A DNA stretch of 64,000 bases, from contig JARRMU010000007.1 of assembly GCA_037385645.1 (NCBI GenBank), positions 8,040 through 72,039 of the forward strand. The letters are read 5' to 3'. The stretch comes from Gemmatimonadales bacterium. GTDB taxonomy: Bacteria; Gemmatimonadota; Gemmatimonadetes; Palauibacterales; Palauibacteraceae. The translations under genes were made by a program, and so were the position numbers. Every line of letters starts with the position of its first letter. Position 1 is the first letter of the stretch. Shown here in pieces: positions 2,702 through 53,978 of the stretch. Below the pieces are notes generated by a model. It was not told the origin of the DNA, made no database searches, and saw only the letters and a program-made list of their open reading frames with translations.

Positions 2702-3600
2702 TCCGGGCTCCTCTCTGAATCATGGACGAAGACCGCGAGCGCCGCGCCGGTCGGGTCGACGATGACCGCGGCCAGGCCCTCGGCGAACTCGGGATCCGGC
2801 TCGATGACCACCTGGCCTCCGAGCGCCACGGCCTTCTCTACCGTCACGGCAAGATCGTCGACGGCCACGTAGGGTAGCCATCCGGATCCTGCGTCTCCCC
2901 TCTCCAGCTCGACGACGCCAGCCTGCGGTTCACCGGCCACCTTGAGGACGCGGTAGGGCTCGTCGCCCCGAATCTGCAGCCCGCCCGCCGTGTAACCGAG
3001 CGAGACGTAGAAGGCAAGAGAGCCGGCGAGGTCGGACGTCCAGAGCTCGACCCAGCCGAAGTCACCCGCCGCCGGCCTCCGATCGGGAGGATCGCCGCCG
3101 CTCGCCCTCAGGAACGCCACGTCCGCGCCCTGGGGGTCGGTGACGAACGCCGTGCGGCCGCGATCCTTCAGGTCCTCGGGCGGATCGTGTACGACCCCCC
3201 CGGCTTCCCTCGTCTGCTCGGCGGCGCGGTCGACGTCGGGGACGGAGATCGAGCCGATCCACAGCGAGGCGTCTCCATCCGCCTCCGGGTCGGCCACGAT
3301 CCCCGCGATCATCCGGCTTTGGTTCTGGACGACCGTGTAGCGTACGTCTCCCTCCGCCAGATCGGAGAATCCCCACCCGAACAGCTCTCCGTAGAAGCGC
3401 TTCGCGGCTGCGACATCGTTTGTCGCGAGATCGAACCAGACGAACTTGCCGTACTGGAACTTCCCGGTGCTGGGCTGGGTCACGCGCGGTACGCGCACCT
3501 CCATGGGCCCACAGGCCGGCAGCAGGACGGACAGAGCCAGGACCGCAGCCGAGACGTAGCGCGATGGGAGCAGAGAGCGTCCTTCGTTGAACATGGTCAT
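2698..3600 (-). CDS. VOC (glyoxalase/bleomycin-resistance/dioxygenase) family protein, tandem VOC domains, lipoprotein signal
   Basis: 300 aa. N-terminal signal with LLPACG lipobox. FQYGKFVWFDLATNDVAAAKRFYGELFGWGF is typical of the VOC fold; a second repeat follows (FGWVELWTSDLAGSLAFY). Confidence 0.7.
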   Translation of the reverse strand: MTMFNEGRSLLPSRYVSAAVLALSVLLPACGPMEVRVPRVTQPSTGKFQYGKFVWFDLATNDVAAAKRFYGELFGWGFSDLAEGDVRYTVVQNQSRMIAGIVADPEADGDASLWIGSISVPDVDRAAEQTREAGGVVHDPPEDLKDRGRTAFVTDPQGADVAFLRASGGDPPDRRPAAGDFGWVELWTSDLAGSLAFYVSLGYTAGGLQIRGDEPYRVLKVAGEPQAGVVELERGDAGSGWLPYVAVDDLAVTVEKAVALGGQVVIEPDPEFAEGLAAVIVDPTGAALAVFVHDSERSPE

Positions 3601-3691
3601 CCTTTCATGTCACCATCTCGCCAAGGTGGGAGCTGCAGCCGCTCTACCGGTTGCGCTCCGCCGCTCCAAGATGCGGGCTGCGGCCGGCGGA

Positions 3692-6600
3692 TCAAGCCCC
3701 GGCCGGTGCCTCGGAGGGTGCTGGACCCATCGGCTGGGGTGAAACCCGGGCCGCCTCGGCCGCCTCGTCTCCGCCGTAGGGGATCCGGAAGAAGATCGTG
3801 TAGAGCACCGGCACCACGATCAACGTAAGAACGGTGGCTACGAGCAGCCCGGCCATGATCGTGACCGCCATCGAAATGAAGAAGGCGTCGGTGAGTAGCG
3901 GGATCATCCCAAGGATCGTGGTGGCGGCGGCCATCATGACGGGGCGCATTCTCGCCACGCCCGAATCCACCACGGCGTGGAAGCGGTTCTTCCCGGTCTC
4001 GATCTGCCGGCCGATTTCCTCCACGAGGACGATCGCGTTCTTGATCAGCATCCCGATCAGGCTCAGGAATCCGAGCAGGGCCATGAAGCCGAACGGTTGC
4101 CGGAAGAGCAGCAGTCCGGCCGTCACGCCGATGATCGCCAGCGGTGCCGTCAGCCAGATGACGAGCGTCTTCTTGATCGAGTTGAACAGCAGGATCACGA
4201 TCAGGATCATGAGGCCGAAGAAGATCGGGAGCGAGGCGGCGAGCCCGGCCTGCGCCCGCGAGCCATCCTCGGCCTCTCCCCCCCAGGCGATGAAGTAGCC
4301 GGGCATGCCCTTGATCGGAATCTGATCCATCTCGACGATCGGGATCGTGCTCGCGGTCAAGGTCTCGAGCGGATCCCGGTCCCCGAAGTCCTTCCCGGTG
4401 TAGGCGGCCAGGTCCACGTTGAGCGCTCGCTCGATGCGGGGCTTGACCCGGTCGAGCAGCTCGCTCGCCAGCTCTCCGTCCGGGTCCGCGTGGACGCGGA
4501 TCGTTCGGTTTCGGTTCCAGCGGAAGCGGGTCGCGTCCTCCCAGATGGTCTCGAAGCCGGCGAGGATCTGGCGCATCGGGATGTTCCGGCCGGCCGCCGC
4601 GCTCCAGATCTGGAGGTCGCGGATGTTGTCCACGTCGTCCCGCTCGTAGTCCGGCGCCCGTGCCACGATCGGCAGGAGCTCGTCGCGCTCGCGGTACACG
4701 CCCGTCTGCGCTCCCTGGAAGGCGACGCGCAGCTGCTTGGCCAGCTCGGGCCGCTCGATCCCGAGCTGACGCGCCTGAGCCTCTGCCAGGACTGGTTGAA
4801 CCGCCTTAACCCTCTCCCTCCACTCGTCCCGGACCCCCTTGCCGCCTTCCTCGCGGAGGATGTCCTTCACCGTCGCCGCCATCTCGCGCAGGATCGTCCC
4901 GTCCGGGCCGCTGATACGGAGCTGGATCTGGCCACCCTCCCCCGGTCCGAGACGGAACTTCCGGATGTTGACGATCGCTTCGGGCAGCAACTCCTGGAGC
5001 TCTCGCTGGCTCCTCGCCTGCAGATCGTCGATGATCGTCCAATCGTTCACGTCCACGAACATGGCGCCGAACGAGGAGCTGGCCGGGTTGGGCGTATAGG
5101 TGAGGAGGAAGCGCAAATCCCCGCCCCCGATCGCGGTCGAGACGTGCGTGACTCCCTCCAGGCCCATGAAGTATTCCTCCGCCTTCGCCAGCTCCCGCTC
5201 CGTATCGCGGATGTGGGTGCCCTCCGGCAGCCAGATGTCCGCGAAGAACTGCGGCCGCGTGGAGTTCGGGAAGAACATGTTGCTGACGAAGCCAAATCCC
5301 CACAGGGAGACGAGGAAGATCCCGATGATGGCGCCCATGGTGAGCCACCGTCGTCGAATCGCGCCCGACAGCAGGGCCTTGTATGCCCCGTAAAACTTTC
5401 CGCCGTACGCGTCCTTCGCCTCCTCTCCTGCGCTCTCCTTCTTTCCTTTGAGAAACATCTTTCCGACGAGCGGCGTGGTGGTGATGGCCGTCACCCAGCT
5501 GAGCATGAGGGAGATCAGGATGACCGTGTAGAGCGAGCGGCAGTACTCGCCGGTGCTGTCCTGAGACGTGCCGATCGCCGCAAAGGCGAGGATCGCGATC
5601 ACGGTGGCGCCGAGGAGGGGGATCATGTTCTGGCCGACGACTTCGGAGGCGGCTTTGATGCGGTCCATCCCCTGCTCGATCCGCACCTGCATCCCGTCGA
5701 CGACGACGATCGCGTTGTCGACCAACATCCCCAGGGCGATGATCAGCGCGCCGAGGGAGATCCGCTCCAGGATCACTCCCTGCAGCTGCATGAAGACGAA
5801 GGTGCCGAAGATCGTGAGGAAGAGAATCCCACCGATGATCGCGCCGCTGCGGATCCCCATGAAGATCATCAGGACGACGAACACGATCGCCACGGCCTCG
5901 AGCAGGTTAACCATGAAGCCGCCGATCGCCGCGGTCACGGCCTCCGATTGCAGCGACACCGCCCCGATCTCCATTCCGAGCGGCGTCTGGGCCTGAAGCT
6001 GCTCGAGCTTCCGCTGCAGAGCATCGCCCATCGTTACCACGTTGCCGCCCGCGACGGTGGAGATGCCGATCGCGATGCCCGGTTTCCCATCGTAGCGGAT
6101 GATCTGGGTGGGCGGATCCCGATATCCGCGCCGGATGGCCGCCACGTCCTTCAGGTAGACGAGCCCGCCCTCTCCTCCGCGGGTGGTGATGAGGAGCTCG
6201 CCGAACTCCTTCTCGGACTGGAACTCGCCGGTCGGGACGATCGCGATGTAGTTGAGGCCGAGCTCTACGCGGCCCGCGTCCGCCGGCAGGTTCTTCGCCT
6301 GCAGCGACCGAAAGATGTCGTCCTGCGAGATTCCAAGAGCGGCCATCTTGGCCCGCGACATCTCCACGTAGATGGTCTCTGGATTGTGTCCCCAGAGGAT
6401 GACCCGCTTCACGTCCTGAACGAGCAGGAGCTCCCGGCGGAGGAGCTTCGCGTACTCGTACAGCTCGGCCATCGTGTAGCCCTCGCCCGTCAAGACCGCG
6501 TAGATGCCGTAGACGTCGCCGAAGTCGTCGTTGACGATCGATGGCCCCGCGCCAGGCGGCAGTCGTCCCTGGTAGTCGTTCACTTTGCGCCGCAGCTCGT

Positions 6601-36111: not shown

Positions 36112-37314
36112 TCAGGCGGATCGCACCTCTGCCCACCATTCGCGCGGTTTCCAGCGCTCGCCGAACCCCAGCTTCTTGTCGACCCACAGCATCAAGCGGC
36201 GGAGGGGGGTGCCGGCGAGGGTGCGTCCCAGGCGCGCCCACCAACGGGAGAAGTCCTTGTTGTAGGGGCAGACGCGGAGGCAGATGGCGCAGTCGCTATT
36301 CTGCTTCACCCAGTAGTCGAAGCAGCGCTCCCCGTCGATCGACCACTTCCGCACGCCGCGCAGGTTGGACTCGTTGAAGCCCTCCGTCGTCGGCTCGCCG
36401 TCGGAGATCGCCTTGACCGGGCAGGCGTCGCTACAGCGGCGGCACACGTCGCAGAATTCCTTGACCCCGAACCGGATGGGCGCGTCCAATGCGAGCGGAA
36501 GGTCGGTGAAGACTTTCCCCAATCGCACCCGCGGGCCGAACTCTTTCGTGATCAGGAGCCCGAGCCGGCTGTACTCTCCGAGTCCCGCTTTGATGGCATA
36601 CGGGATGGCCAGCGAAGAGTCGTTCATGCTAGCGACCGCGTTGTAGCCGAGGTTCCGGATGTACTGAGCCGTCGAGAGGACGACGAGTGCATCGTGTGAG
36701 TAGCCGAGACCCGTCGCCGCGCCGCTGAGCGCCGAGGGTACGGTCCTGATCCAGTCGTAGTCCATCTGCTGCGCCGTGACGACCACCCAATCCAGGCCGG
36801 TGGGGATGTCGTTGGGCCGCTCCGTTAGAGAGATGTCGCTGAACTTCGAGGCGTACATCCAGCGCTCATCGTACTCCGTGATGCCGACGAGGCTGGCGCC
36901 AAACGCTTTCGCGACCCGTTTGATTTCCCGCGCAGCTGCCTCGGGCGACTCGAACTCGCTCCTCTCGCTGGCGATATCGCGCTGGAGCGTAAAGGCGTCC
37001 GTGAACCCCTCGCGCCGATCCTCGGACTCCTTGAGCTCGGTGAAGATGTCGCTCACGTGCCAGGCGGCGTTTCGGAGAGCGTAGTCCTTCTGGGTGAACC
37101 CGTCCGCCTTCCGCCAGCTCTCCAGCGCCTCCCGGTAGGTCTTGTAGAAGAGAGCGGATTTGTCGCTCTTGATGCGCTCGTCCCACCAGGAGCGCCGGAA
37201 GACGTCGTACTTTTGATGGAAGCGCTCGAAGTCCGAGGTGATCTCGAAGCCGGCCCGCCGGTCGGAGGTAGCATGGTCGCGACCGACGTCGAGGCCGGCC
37301 CGCTCGTCACTCAA
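36112..37314 (-). CDS. Reductive dehalogenase (RdhA)/QueG superfamily Fe-S protein, cytoplasmic (no TAT signal)
   Basis: 400 aa. Two ferredoxin-type motifs at the C-terminus: CDVCRRCSDACP (CxxCxxCxxxCP) and C-x11-CAICLRVCP, preceded by the RKWSIDGERCFDYW block typical of RdhA-family proteins. Confidence 0.6.
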   Translation of the reverse strand: MSDERAGLDVGRDHATSDRRAGFEITSDFERFHQKYDVFRRSWWDERIKSDKSALFYKTYREALESWRKADGFTQKDYALRNAAWHVSDIFTELKESEDRREGFTDAFTLQRDIASERSEFESPEAAAREIKRVAKAFGASLVGITEYDERWMYASKFSDISLTERPNDIPTGLDWVVVTAQQMDYDWIRTVPSALSGAATGLGYSHDALVVLSTAQYIRNLGYNAVASMNDSSLAIPYAIKAGLGEYSRLGLLITKEFGPRVRLGKVFTDLPLALDAPIRFGVKEFCDVCRRCSDACPVKAISDGEPTTEGFNESNLRGVRKWSIDGERCFDYWVKQNSDCAICLRVCPYNKDFSRWWARLGRTLAGTPLRRLMLWVDKKLGFGERWKPREWWAEVRSA

Positions 37315-37320
37315 CGACCG

Positions 37321-37539
37321 TCACCCGGCGCTCGCCTGGGACCGGACCACCAGACGGTCGAACAGCCTTCGGGAGGCTTCCGCGATCTCCGCCACCGCCG
37401 TGTCGAACGCGTCGCGGTTAGCCTTGGACGGCTCACGGTATCCGCTGATCTTGCGGACGAACTGGAGCGCAGCATCCCGCAGCTCGTCTTCGGTCGGCAG
37501 ACCCGTCGGTTGCCTGAGCTTTCTTATGTTTCTGCACAT
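37321..37539 (-). CDS. Small conserved hypothetical protein (DUF2277-like, MCRNI... start)
   Basis: 72 aa beginning MCRNIRKLRQP. 6 nt downstream of the RdhA-like gene on the same strand. Confidence 0.45.
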   Translation of the reverse strand: MCRNIRKLRQPTGLPTEDELRDAALQFVRKISGYREPSKANRDAFDTAVAEIAEASRRLFDRLVVRSQASAG

Positions 37540-37668
37540 GGCTCACGTTCTCTCCGTTCGCGGGCGCCGATGGAACAGATAAGGACGTCGACTCCCTGGT
37601 GAATGGCGGATTTTTCCACTCGAGGGCCCACCTTCTCCAGAGGTAGAGGCGGTCGGTTTCCAGCATCA

Positions 37669-38499
37669 TCAGCCGTCGACGTCGGTCCGCTTCTGTACGG
37701 TCTCGCCGATGCGGGCCACGACGCGGTCGACGCGGCGGCCGGCCTCGACGATCATCTCCCAGTTCAGCGGCACGATCGGCTGCGCGTGCGCCAGGTTGTT
37801 GCGAAGGGAGCCCAGCTGCTTGATCCATCGCTCGCCATCCCGGCGCGAGGAGAAATCGAACTCCTCGAGCCATTCTTCGTCTCGGATGAGGAGCTGCATC
37901 TTGTCGCCCACCTGCAGGCAGTCCACGAGCCGCACGGGCTGCTGTCGCCGCATACGTTCCGCGAACAACTCCCGCGCTTTCCGCACTCGACCGCTGGAGA
38001 CCAGTTCGGTCCACGAGTCGTCCGGGTAGAGCGACTCGATCGTCTCGGTCAGGAATATCTCGACAATGGTGATCATCCCGAACAGCCACATCCTGGCAGG
38101 CGGCTTCTCGAAGTGCATGCGAACCACGAAGGCGTCGATCTGGCCGAGAACCGACACGAAACAGTACTCGCGGTCATCGCTCAGGCGCTCCACGACCTCG
38201 GGAAGGGATGCATGATGCGGGACGACGCGGGCGGGTTCGACGTCTCGCGCGTGATCCGCGCACGTTCCCCCCGATTGAAGGTCGCTCGCGCGTACGTAGC
38301 CGGACACGCGGCCTTCTCGACGCACTCCTCCGACGGGATCGCGCGAGCCTTCCAGCGCTTCCAGCGCCGTCGCGGCAGCCGCCGTGGCGTCGAAGGAAAG
38401 CAGAGGCTCGGCGATGTCGAGGACCGTAAAACCCTCGGTGAAGAGTCTCTTCATGCGAAGCTGCAGAGCTTCGCGGTCCATGGGGTCGCGGGAGATCAT
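37669..38499 (-). CDS. CBS-pair domain protein with C-terminal alpha-helical domain carrying an R-N-x3-H (HEPN-like) motif
   Basis: 276 aa. Two CBS-like repeats (VLDIAEPLLSFDAT...GYVRASDL; ARVVPHHASLPEVVERL...FVSVLGQID). C-terminal LGSLRNNLAHAQPI = Rx4H. Confidence 0.5.
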   Translation of the reverse strand: MISRDPMDREALQLRMKRLFTEGFTVLDIAEPLLSFDATAAAATALEALEGSRDPVGGVRREGRVSGYVRASDLQSGGTCADHARDVEPARVVPHHASLPEVVERLSDDREYCFVSVLGQIDAFVVRMHFEKPPARMWLFGMITIVEIFLTETIESLYPDDSWTELVSSGRVRKARELFAERMRRQQPVRLVDCLQVGDKMQLLIRDEEWLEEFDFSSRRDGERWIKQLGSLRNNLAHAQPIVPLNWEMIVEAGRRVDRVVARIGETVQKRTDVDG

Positions 38500-38533: not shown

Positions 38534-39562
38534 TCACCAGATCTTCCATGCCGGAATCCGGTGTGGCACGAACGAGAACCGTGGCCCGGCCGTGTCCACC
38601 ACGACGCGCACCCAACCCACTTCCGGCGATCCCATGACCTGCATCCGCGTGAAGTTCTCGAGGAGTCGGCCCGTACGCCGGTCGACCAGCGGGGAATCGA
38701 CGGTGTAATGGTGGCTGTCGCCGTGGACGAGGAGGACAGGCCCGTCGAAGGTCGCCACCTCTTCCTCCAGGGCTCTCAGAAACGGTTCGAACGCTCGCCG
38801 ATACTCGTCGGCCGGGTCTTCGAACACGAGGTCCGCGTGTTCTATGAGGACGATCGCGCCTGCCGCCGTGGCGCGCGCGTCCTCGAAGGTGTCGCGAAGC
38901 CACGCGGTGGCCGCCTCGGTCCGGCGGAGCGCCTCTCGGTCGTTGGCGTCGGCGCGGCCTGGAAAGCCCTCCATGCCGTTTCTGCTTCCCACGAGATGCA
39001 GGGTGGCGAAGACGATGCCGCCTCTCGTCCAGCGTTGGTGCTCCACGAACTCCGACCACACGGAGTCCGAAGCCTGGGAGACGACCTCCATCGGTGAGCC
39101 CCCGAGGCTCTGGCCCGGACTCGGAAAGTAGAGGTCGCGCAGCCTTCCAAGACGTTCGAGCGGCTCGAACCCGCCCTCGCGCCGTCCCCAGCAGTCCGTC
39201 CATTCGTTGTCACCGGGTGTGTAGACGACGGGGTGCCTGATCCGCTGCATCGCCTCGAGGCGCTCGAGCATCCTCTCGTCCGAGCAGGGCTTCCAGAACA
39301 GGTCGCCCACGTGGATCACCCAGTCGAGCGAATCCGCGTTCAGCGCCGCGACGAGATGCTCGTAGCGGCGGGCCTCGTGCCAGTAGTAGGGAGCATCCCC
39401 CATCACCGCGAACGTAAGGTCACCGCTGACCGGCTCCGACCCGGCCGAGCCTCCGCAGGCCAAGGCGCCGAGCAGGGCGACGACGACGCCCGGCCGCCGC
39501 GCCACTCGATTACCCGGTCGTGCTGCCCGTATCTCAGCGATTGAGCCGGCGGGGGCCCTCAA
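38534..39562 (-). CDS. Calcineurin-like metallophosphoesterase, lipoprotein
   Basis: 342 aa. Signal plus lipobox (LLGALACGGS). Phosphoesterase motifs GDAPYY, GDLFWK, GDNEW, LVHGDSHH. Confidence 0.8.
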   Translation of the reverse strand: MRAPAGSIAEIRAARPGNRVARRPGVVVALLGALACGGSAGSEPVSGDLTFAVMGDAPYYWHEARRYEHLVAALNADSLDWVIHVGDLFWKPCSDERMLERLEAMQRIRHPVVYTPGDNEWTDCWGRREGGFEPLERLGRLRDLYFPSPGQSLGGSPMEVVSQASDSVWSEFVEHQRWTRGGIVFATLHLVGSRNGMEGFPGRADANDREALRRTEAATAWLRDTFEDARATAAGAIVLIEHADLVFEDPADEYRRAFEPFLRALEEEVATFDGPVLLVHGDSHHYTVDSPLVDRRTGRLLENFTRMQVMGSPEVGWVRVVVDTAGPRFSFVPHRIPAWKIW

Positions 39563-53491: not shown

Positions 53492-53884
53492 GGCGGAGGG
53501 ATGGGAGGTCGCGGGCCGGCATCGAGCGAGTCTCGAGGTGCGGTTCGAGGAAAGTCCGGGCTCCGCAGGGCACGGTGCCGGGTAACGCCCGGGCGCCGCG
53601 AGGCGACGGAAAGTGTCACAGAGAACAGACCGCCGATGGCGGCTTCGGCCGCACAGGCAAGGGTGAAAAGGTGGGGTAAGAGCCCACCGCGCCGCTGGAG
53701 ACAGCGACGGCACGACAAACCCCACCGGGAGCAAGGCCAAATAGGGAGCGAGCGGCGGCCCGCCGCAGTCGAGCTCCGGGTAGGCCGCTAGAGACGCCGG
53801 GCAACCGGTCGTCCGAGACAGATGACCTCCGCGGGGCGTCCTGCAACGCCCCGTAACAGAACCCGGCTTACGTCCCTCCGCCAC
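53492..53884 (+). ncRNA. rnpB: RNase P RNA, bacterial type A
   Basis: Hallmark GAGGAAAGUCCGGGCUCC (53547-53564), GGUGCCGGGUAACGCCCGG, GAAAGUGUCACAGAGAACAGACCGCC, GGUAAGAGCCCACC, ACAAACCCCACCGGGAGCAAGGCCAAAUAGGG, GGGUAGGCCGCUAGAG and 3' ACAGAACCCGGCUUAC. P1 helix 5' GGCGGAGGGA (53492-53501) pairs with 3' UCCCUCCGCC (53873-53882). Confidence 0.85.
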
Positions 53885-53978
53885 CTTCACTACATTCGGC
53901 GGCCGTCACTGGCCACCGAACCTCATCCGGCCAGCGAGGCACGAACGATCACGCGCTCAGGAAAGGAGCCGCACGGAC

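Follow-up and report, generated by a model that had tools for sequence, protein, structure and literature searches.

The window analysed here is a 64,000-nucleotide stretch of a Gemmatimonadales bacterium contig, and the gene under study in it is complete and encodes a protein of 276 amino acids in which a pair of CBS motifs precedes a HEPN-type domain (Table 1). The encoded protein is 100% identical to P0001, which carries the NCBI name 'Swt1 family HEPN domain-containing protein [Gemmatimonadales bacterium]'; neither an NCBIfam nor a PADLOC scan was informative about it, and it has no PADLOC or Cas match. A calcineurin-like metallophosphoesterase is encoded 34 bp upstream on the same strand and a DUF2277 protein (90.9 bits) 130 bp downstream, with an RdhA-like gene beyond the latter; domain scans thus bore out the neighbours that the earlier note had named. 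Given that only 7 bp separate the DUF2277 and RdhA-like genes, co-transcription of these two is suggested. The RdhA-like gene is also syntenic with DUF2277 in loci L006, L007, L009 and L010, and RdhA is found in L011 as well. G+C content (approximately 65–68%) is even over the whole window and gives no sign of a foreign island around the CBS-HEPN gene.

Gene order around the CBS-HEPN gene is stable in Gemmatimonadota: TPR/cytochrome, BNR-sortilin, (metallophosphoesterase), CBS-HEPN, (methyltransferase), (GNAT), DUF2277 and RdhA, in which the three bracketed genes are variably present. The metallophosphoesterase was found in just four of the ten Gemmatimonadota loci compared (the window, L007, L009 and L010) and, as its N-terminus also resembles a lipoprotein signal peptide, the protein is probably exported and unrelated to the cytoplasmic CBS-HEPN protein. 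Between the CBS-HEPN stop codon and the DUF2277 start lies the remnant of a GNAT pseudogene, the first approximately 10 codons of which (MMLETDRLYL) overlap that stop codon. The final 37 codons (EKVGPRVEKSAIHQGVDVLICSIGARERREREPCAET) share 65% identity with the intact 177-amino-acid GNAT of L010, L006 and L007; the pieces lie in different frames, implying an internal deletion of approximately 130 codons. A JGI protein of 425 amino acids annotated as 'RimJ/RimL family N-acetyltransferase' (P0019) has the appearance of a CBS-HEPN::GNAT fusion, which we reject as a frameshifted read-through: the frameshift loses the RNxxxH motif and continues into the downstream GNAT gene, and in the species-representative genome (L010, locus 3097-4460) the two genes are separate and intact. 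A general link to GNAT proteins was likewise rejected, because the adjacency is confined to particular lineages and GNATs of the Planctomycetota type are not closely related to those of Gemmatimonadota. The immediate neighbours are the metallophosphoesterase, the GNAT remnant and DUF2277, in agreement with the earlier statement that no antitoxin or MNT gene adjoins the gene; none was found in the neighbourhoods of its relatives either.

Table 1 Coordinates of the CBS-HEPN gene, its domains and motifs, and other features of the window
Feature	Position	Strand	Basis or remark
CBS-pair/HEPN gene, complete, 276 aa, ATG start, TGA stop	37669..38499	-	ORF
CBS pair (Bateman module), aa 20-131; CBS1 ~aa 24-76, CBS2 ~aa 87-131	38107..38442	-	
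CBS2 ribose-phosphate motif position, AFVVRMH, aa 123-129, non-canonical	38113..38133	-	V126/H129 replace T/S and D
Junction motif KPPARMWLFG, aa 132-141, family-specific, start of HEPN helix 1	38077..38106	-	Conservation
HEPN domain, aa 133-262, Abi2/Swt1 clade	37714..38103	-	
Ex3[KR] motif ERMRR (E181-R185), accessory active-site acid, HEPN helix 2	37945..37959	-	Motif definition, PMC3710099
DCLQ motif, aa 193-196	37918-37929	-	Cys194 in 148/149 representatives
Catalytic Rx4H motif RNNLAH (R233, N234, H238), end of HEPN helix 3	37786..37803	-	Conservation
GNAT (Acetyltransf_3) pseudogene remnant	37527-37675	-	
RdhA-like gene, reductive-dehalogenase family	36112-37314	-	TIGR02486, 188.8 bits vs NCBIfam threshold 160.35
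Metallophosphoesterase gene	38534-39562	-	N-terminus resembles lipoprotein signal peptide (RRPGVVVALLGALAC), read from sequence
Bacterial RNase P RNA, class A	53493-53885	+	RF00010, 266 bits, full length; sole Rfam gathering-threshold match in the window

Structure prediction gave the C-terminal half of the protein as a four-helix up-and-down bundle whose second and third helices are separated by an insert, which is the HEPN fold. Fold searches with the whole model were swamped by the CBS pair, which hid the HEPN domain, and residues 128–276 were instead modelled alone. The solved HEPN structure closest to this model is that of the Abi protein PbAbiF (PDB 8vz6; 14% sequence identity); among PDB sequences, neither sequence nor profile searches turned up a solved relative of this half. 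A HEPN active site is defined by three elements (PMC3710099): helix 3 ends in Rx4-6H, the arginine is followed by a polar residue (N, D or H), and an acid within an Ex3[KR] motif lies upstream. All three elements are present in the window protein (R233-x4-H238, N234 and E181-x3-R185), with ERMRR borne on the helix spanning residues 169–184 and R233–H238 placed at the end of the helix spanning residues 219–237. Across 104 relatives, R233, N234 and H238 are invariant; among representatives clustered at 50% identity, the arginine is present in 148/148 and the histidine in 147/148, and only N, D or H occurs at position 234. In the accessory motif, E181 is conserved in 102/149 representatives (113/149 are acidic when 11 with Asp are included), R182 in 142/149 and R185 in 104/149. 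The Pfam HEPN_Swt1 model (PF18731) matched residues 147–243 of the window protein at 27.9 bits (E 3.1e-6), which is marginal against the gathering threshold of 27.5, and matched 95 of the 104 relatives at E<=0.01 (best 9.6e-9). The HEPN-type domain with an RNxxxH motif that had been read from the sequence alone stands, because the fold is a HEPN bundle and the motif's arginine and histidine, along with the asparagine, are essentially invariant. The HEPN RNase active site is complete in the window protein, which we predict to be a nuclease. The junction that leads into the domain, KPxxRMWLFG, is nearly invariant from R136 to G141 (R136 and F140 each in 146/149 representatives). W163, R171 and R182 are also nearly invariant and lie outside the canonical HEPN active site, as does Cys194; residues of this set may serve in RNA binding, at a dimer interface or in redox sensing.

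In the N-terminal half, two CBS motifs of the beta-alpha-beta-beta-alpha type follow each other in tandem and pack together as a pair. The Pfam CBS model (PF00571) has no match on the window protein at E<=1 and matches 32 of the 104 relatives (best 3.7e-9), so that membership of the window protein rests on its fold and on homology to the relatives that do match; on these grounds the CBS pair claimed previously is confirmed. CBS motifs canonically each carry a ribose-phosphate motif, G-h-h-T/S-x-x-D/N, and many CBS domains bind ligands without it. The canonical motif is absent from the window protein, in which the corresponding positions read G-Y-V-R70-A-S-D73 in CBS1, with Arg at the T/S position, and A-F-V-V126-R-M-H129 in CBS2. 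Distant relatives have a canonical CBS2 site ([G/A]-h-V-[T/S]-R-x-D; T/S in 76/93 and D in 86/93), and the 50%-identity representatives have T/S in 103/149 and D in 127/149, with His at the Asp position in 4/149. In the Gemmatimonadota clade of the window protein, A, V or I stands for T/S and His for Asp in 10 of 11 members, and D28, G58, R60 and G63 do not vary. With V126 and H129 standing where CBS2 canonically has Thr and Asp, gating by a ligand is less well assured for this protein than for most family members.

Relatives of the protein form 1330 clusters at 90% identity (E<=1e-3) or, at 50% identity, 2751 representatives at E<=1e-3, 578 of them reaching E<=1e-30. They are encoded in 483 of approximately 185,579 GTDB species-representative genomes, from phyla that include Gemmatimonadota, Planctomycetota, Desulfobacterota, Krumholzibacteriota, Acidobacteriota, Nitrospirota and Chloroflexota, together with sulfur-oxidising and symbiotic Gammaproteobacteria. 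Clustering of the ORFs around 85 loci revealed no universal neighbour and no antitoxin, MNT or cyclase partner, and no nucleotidyltransferase family was listed among the tightly linked neighbours of the relatives. The largest apparent neighbour clusters proved to be shadow ORFs on the strand opposite the CBS-HEPN gene and were discarded. None of 2.9 M viral contigs, 72.5 k plasmids and 50.7 k phage genomes encoded a relative, the phage and plasmid collections being biased to cultured taxa, and PADLOC gave only scattered generic matches (MotA/B, AAA ATPases and kinases) among 150 neighbouring genes. The family appears to be chromosomal, without mobile elements or a defence-island context. Searches of the literature under 'CBS-HEPN' and 'alr3009' brought no experiments on it to light.

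An association with HD phosphohydrolases, for the most part of the Mesh1 or small-alarmone-hydrolase type, recurs in the family in four independent arrangements. N-terminal HD_4-CBS-HEPN fusions of approximately 445–490 amino acids account for approximately 27/83 loci, mostly in Gammaproteobacteria and also in one Nitrospirae genome; two C-terminal fusions have the orders CBS-HEPN-HD_4 (P0125) and CBS-HEPN-HD (P0158); and in eight Desulfuromonadales-type loci a separate HDIG gene of approximately 190 codons either overlaps the stop codon by 4 nt or lies within 293 bp downstream. The HD_4 domain matches Mesh1 (3nqw, E 2.3e-16), human HDDC3, the hydrolase domains of Rel/SpoT and small alarmone hydrolases (SAH), and has an intact LHDTVED motif, and what the separate HDIG protein resembles most is the HD domain of the CCA-adding enzyme and of GlnD. 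That fusion has occurred repeatedly and independently is a good argument for a functional link between CBS-HEPN and HD proteins. The Mesh1-type domain suggests that the ligand is an alarmone-like phosphorylated nucleotide, the hydrolysis of which would reset the switch; the CCA-type HDIG partner could instead process the 2',3'-cyclic phosphate ends of RNA rather than the signal molecule. As both HD types occur, the HD partner does not point to a single ligand. The Gemmatimonadota clade of the window protein lacks either type, and the metallophosphoesterase of the window is unsupported as a functional stand-in, given its presence in a minority of Gemmatimonadota loci and its probable export. 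In Sedimenticolaceae and tubeworm and clam symbionts (L039, L040, L050, L052, L053, L057, L058 and L077), the HD_4-CBS-HEPN gene lies downstream of a gene for a hybrid histidine kinase/response regulator of approximately 694 amino acids, with a gap of 5 bp in most of these loci and overlapping ORFs in L053 and L077; a representative protein of 860 amino acids (P0191) apparently fuses HD_4-CBS-HEPN to PAS and histidine-kinase domains. These arrangements hint at a tie to two-component signalling in this lineage.

A regulated RNase is the best and a plausible reading of the window protein, because both domain assignments are correct and relatives scarcely vary at the catalytic R, N and H. The explanation that we favour, with moderate confidence, is a CBS-HEPN sensor-effector with a physiological role in stress or RNA turnover. 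The protein would act in the cytoplasm as a single polypeptide, in which the CBS pair is joined through the KPxxRMWLFG junction to an RNase of the Abi2/Swt1 HEPN clade. As in known HEPN RNases, which act without a metal and yield 2',3'-cyclic phosphate ends (PMC3710099), a homodimer would bring its two Rx4H motifs together into a composite site for cutting RNA, with such ends as the product. By the precedent of Bateman modules, a small phosphorylated nucleotide bound in the CBS clefts would re-orient the dimer and thereby activate or silence the nuclease. To judge from the fused Mesh1/SAH-type HD_4 domain, this ligand may in much of the family be an alarmone-like or related nucleotide, and the HD partner would return the switch to its starting state by destroying it, the part that ring nucleases play for CARF-HEPN effectors. 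The ligand-gated RNase resembling CARF-HEPN effectors that was first proposed for this gene is, accordingly, a reasonable analogy that the HD fusions support, but one in which the gating part is weakened for this protein by V126 and H129. The clade of the window protein probably has a different ligand or weaker gating, as it is without an HD partner and has Val and His for the CBS2 Thr and Asp. A more specific version, which we regard as rather doubtful, would make the whole family a housekeeping, alarmone-gated switch for RNA degradation: the CBS pair would sense (p)ppGpp, (p)ppApp or a related nucleotide, the dimeric HEPN RNase would be switched in response, the fused or adjacent Mesh1/SAH-type HD would reset the system by destroying the ligand and the clade of the window protein would be re-tuned to another ligand. 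Were this so, the family would be a CBS-based counterpart of CARF-HEPN effectors with their ring nucleases and would tie the stringent response directly to RNA turnover.

How far the sensing half of this sensor-effector applies to the window protein is a matter on which the evidence divides. The CBS pair may here be merely a dimerisation scaffold, such that, at least in the Gemmatimonadota clade, RNase activity would depend on expression level, on the substrate or on some different input, for example redox acting via Cys194, a residue of the DCLQ motif that is conserved almost universally. The missing Pfam CBS match, the Arg in CBS1, the substitutions in CBS2 throughout most of the clade and the absence of an HD partner all point in this direction. 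However, the CBS fold and many of its residues, the four invariant ones among them, are strongly constrained in the clade, the consistent change of Asp to His resembles re-specification rather than decay, and ligand binding by CBS domains often dispenses with the canonical motif; we consider a non-sensing scaffold unlikely. Doubt about the effector half is far smaller. A catalytically inactive HEPN domain with an RNA-binding or regulatory function, like that of eukaryotic Swt1 or MtlR, would hardly be expected to retain an essentially invariant R233 and H238, N, D or H after the arginine in all relatives and the Ex3R motif, and the 2013 survey of HEPN domains classes the bacterial versions fused to CBS and HD as 'active' (PMC3710099). 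We regard this reading as very improbable.

The role of the RNase is the more serious point of contention. In the DefensePredictor study, DeWeirdt et al. (Science 2026) describe DS-11 (WP_000257686.1), a validated one-protein anti-phage CBS-HEPN system from E. coli, in which the HEPN substitutions R330A and H335A and the CBS substitution Y157A each abolish phage defence, and conclude that the CBS pair regulates the HEPN nuclease through an adenine derivative, the molecule being unidentified (PMC13092281). The window protein could accordingly be an abortive-infection or anti-phage effector of this type, in which the CBS pair senses an adenine-derived nucleotide altered by infection and the HEPN domain degrades host or phage RNA. 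The domain order is shared, the HEPN domain of DS-11 likewise has an RNxxxH motif, the two family profiles align collinearly through 201 columns that stretch from CBS1 to RNxxxH, the nearest HEPN domain of known structure belongs to an Abi protein and the distribution of the family among sequenced species is patchy. Against this, similarity to DS-11 is marginal: BLASTP gave non-significant E values of 0.26 and 1.1 (with the HEPN halves in register), the family profile against the single DS-11 sequence was not significant and hhalign of the two family profiles reached E 1.6e-3 at a probability of 15.7%. The N-terminal domain of approximately 130 amino acids that precedes the CBS pair of DS-11 (residues 134–241) is missing from the window protein, the CBS pair of which begins at approximately residue 20, and the family has no conserved aromatic residue at the position equivalent to Y157. 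The gene also has housekeeping neighbours in a stable Gemmatimonadota synteny (72–87% protein identity), and neither the mobile-element searches nor the PADLOC survey described above associates the family with defence. Vertically conserved synteny among housekeeping genes, without mobile elements or defence neighbours, favours a physiological role in stress or RNA turnover over dedicated phage defence. The absence of a defence context is in itself weak evidence for housekeeping, because DefensePredictor systems frequently lie outside defence islands and DS-11, which defends, is among them. We therefore favour the physiological role and keep phage defence as a live alternative, to which we assign a real but minority share of our confidence.

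Several known systems share parts of this design, and comparison with them sets the limits of what is new in the window gene. The earlier note held a stand-alone CBS-HEPN protein to be undescribed, which is wrong on two counts. Anantharaman, Makarova, Burroughs, Koonin and Aravind listed 'CBS and HD (alr3009), active' within the Swt1-like HEPN clade in 2013, with alr3009 and gi 118580987 from Pelobacter propionicus as exemplars, and put forward the hypothesis that nucleotide sensing by CBS regulates RNA stability (PMC3710099); DS-11 was validated in 2026 (PMC13092281). The window protein has in common with the 2013 set its architecture, its Abi2/Swt1 clade and its predicted activity, and its family likewise has Desulfuromonadales members and HD-fused forms. 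The match is made on architecture, clade and taxon, and the window protein differs from that set in being a short form without HD and with a non-canonical CBS2 site. The architecture was thus already anticipated by a prediction and an experimental example, and the window gene is a correctly recognised further case.

Other HEPN systems differ from it in how the nuclease is controlled. AbiF is governed by an adjacent non-coding RNA. AbiF/Abi2 proteins such as PbAbiF have no CBS pair, whereas the window protein has one, and its gene offers no counterpart of such an RNA: only 34 bp separate it from the upstream gene, tandem repeats are absent from its surroundings, no Rfam match was found within 15 kb and terminator-like sites are not enriched. 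With no RNA gene or repeat array adjoining the gene, control of the AbiF kind is ruled out. In CARF-HEPN effectors (Csm6/Csx1) the sensor is a Rossmann-like CARF domain, in place of which the window protein would sense with a CBS pair; the resemblance is one of analogy, as the sensors are not homologous, and the window gene has neither a CRISPR-Cas nor a cyclase neighbour. HEPN/MNT pairs (for example, SO_3166/SO_3165, PDB 7ae2) have an antitoxin, whereas control of the window protein is predicted to act in cis through the CBS pair.

DS-11 is the sole CBS-HEPN protein studied by experiment, and both it and the window protein place a CBS pair before an RNxxxH HEPN domain in one polypeptide without a partner gene. 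That DS-11 needs both its HEPN catalytic residues and a CBS residue supports the sensor-effector logic proposed here. We nevertheless do not assign the window protein to DS-11, given the marginal similarity, the extra N-terminal domain of DS-11 and the different scoring of both halves: the DS-11 HEPN domain was assigned to HEPN_SAV2148 by HHpred in the original study (PMC13092281), and DS-11 scores 58 bits on Pfam CBS, for which the window protein has no match. The taxa differ too, DS-11 occurring in Enterobacteria, Pseudomonas and Burkholderia and the family of the window protein in Gemmatimonadota, Planctomycetota, Desulfobacterota and sulfur-oxidising Gammaproteobacteria. The two are machines of one kind, with a relationship that is distant at best. 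If the mechanism holds, a large and widespread bacterial family would couple a nucleotide signal directly to RNA cleavage within a single polypeptide; the repeated fusion to Mesh1-type alarmone hydrolases provides a concrete shortlist of candidate ligands, and the contrast between canonical members and the V126/H129 clade of the window protein is one that nature has supplied for studying how CBS pairs select their ligands. It is also relevant to the origin of DS-11 and other CBS-HEPN proteins, which may be dedicated immune effectors or may have been drawn from a broader class of physiological RNases that this family represents.
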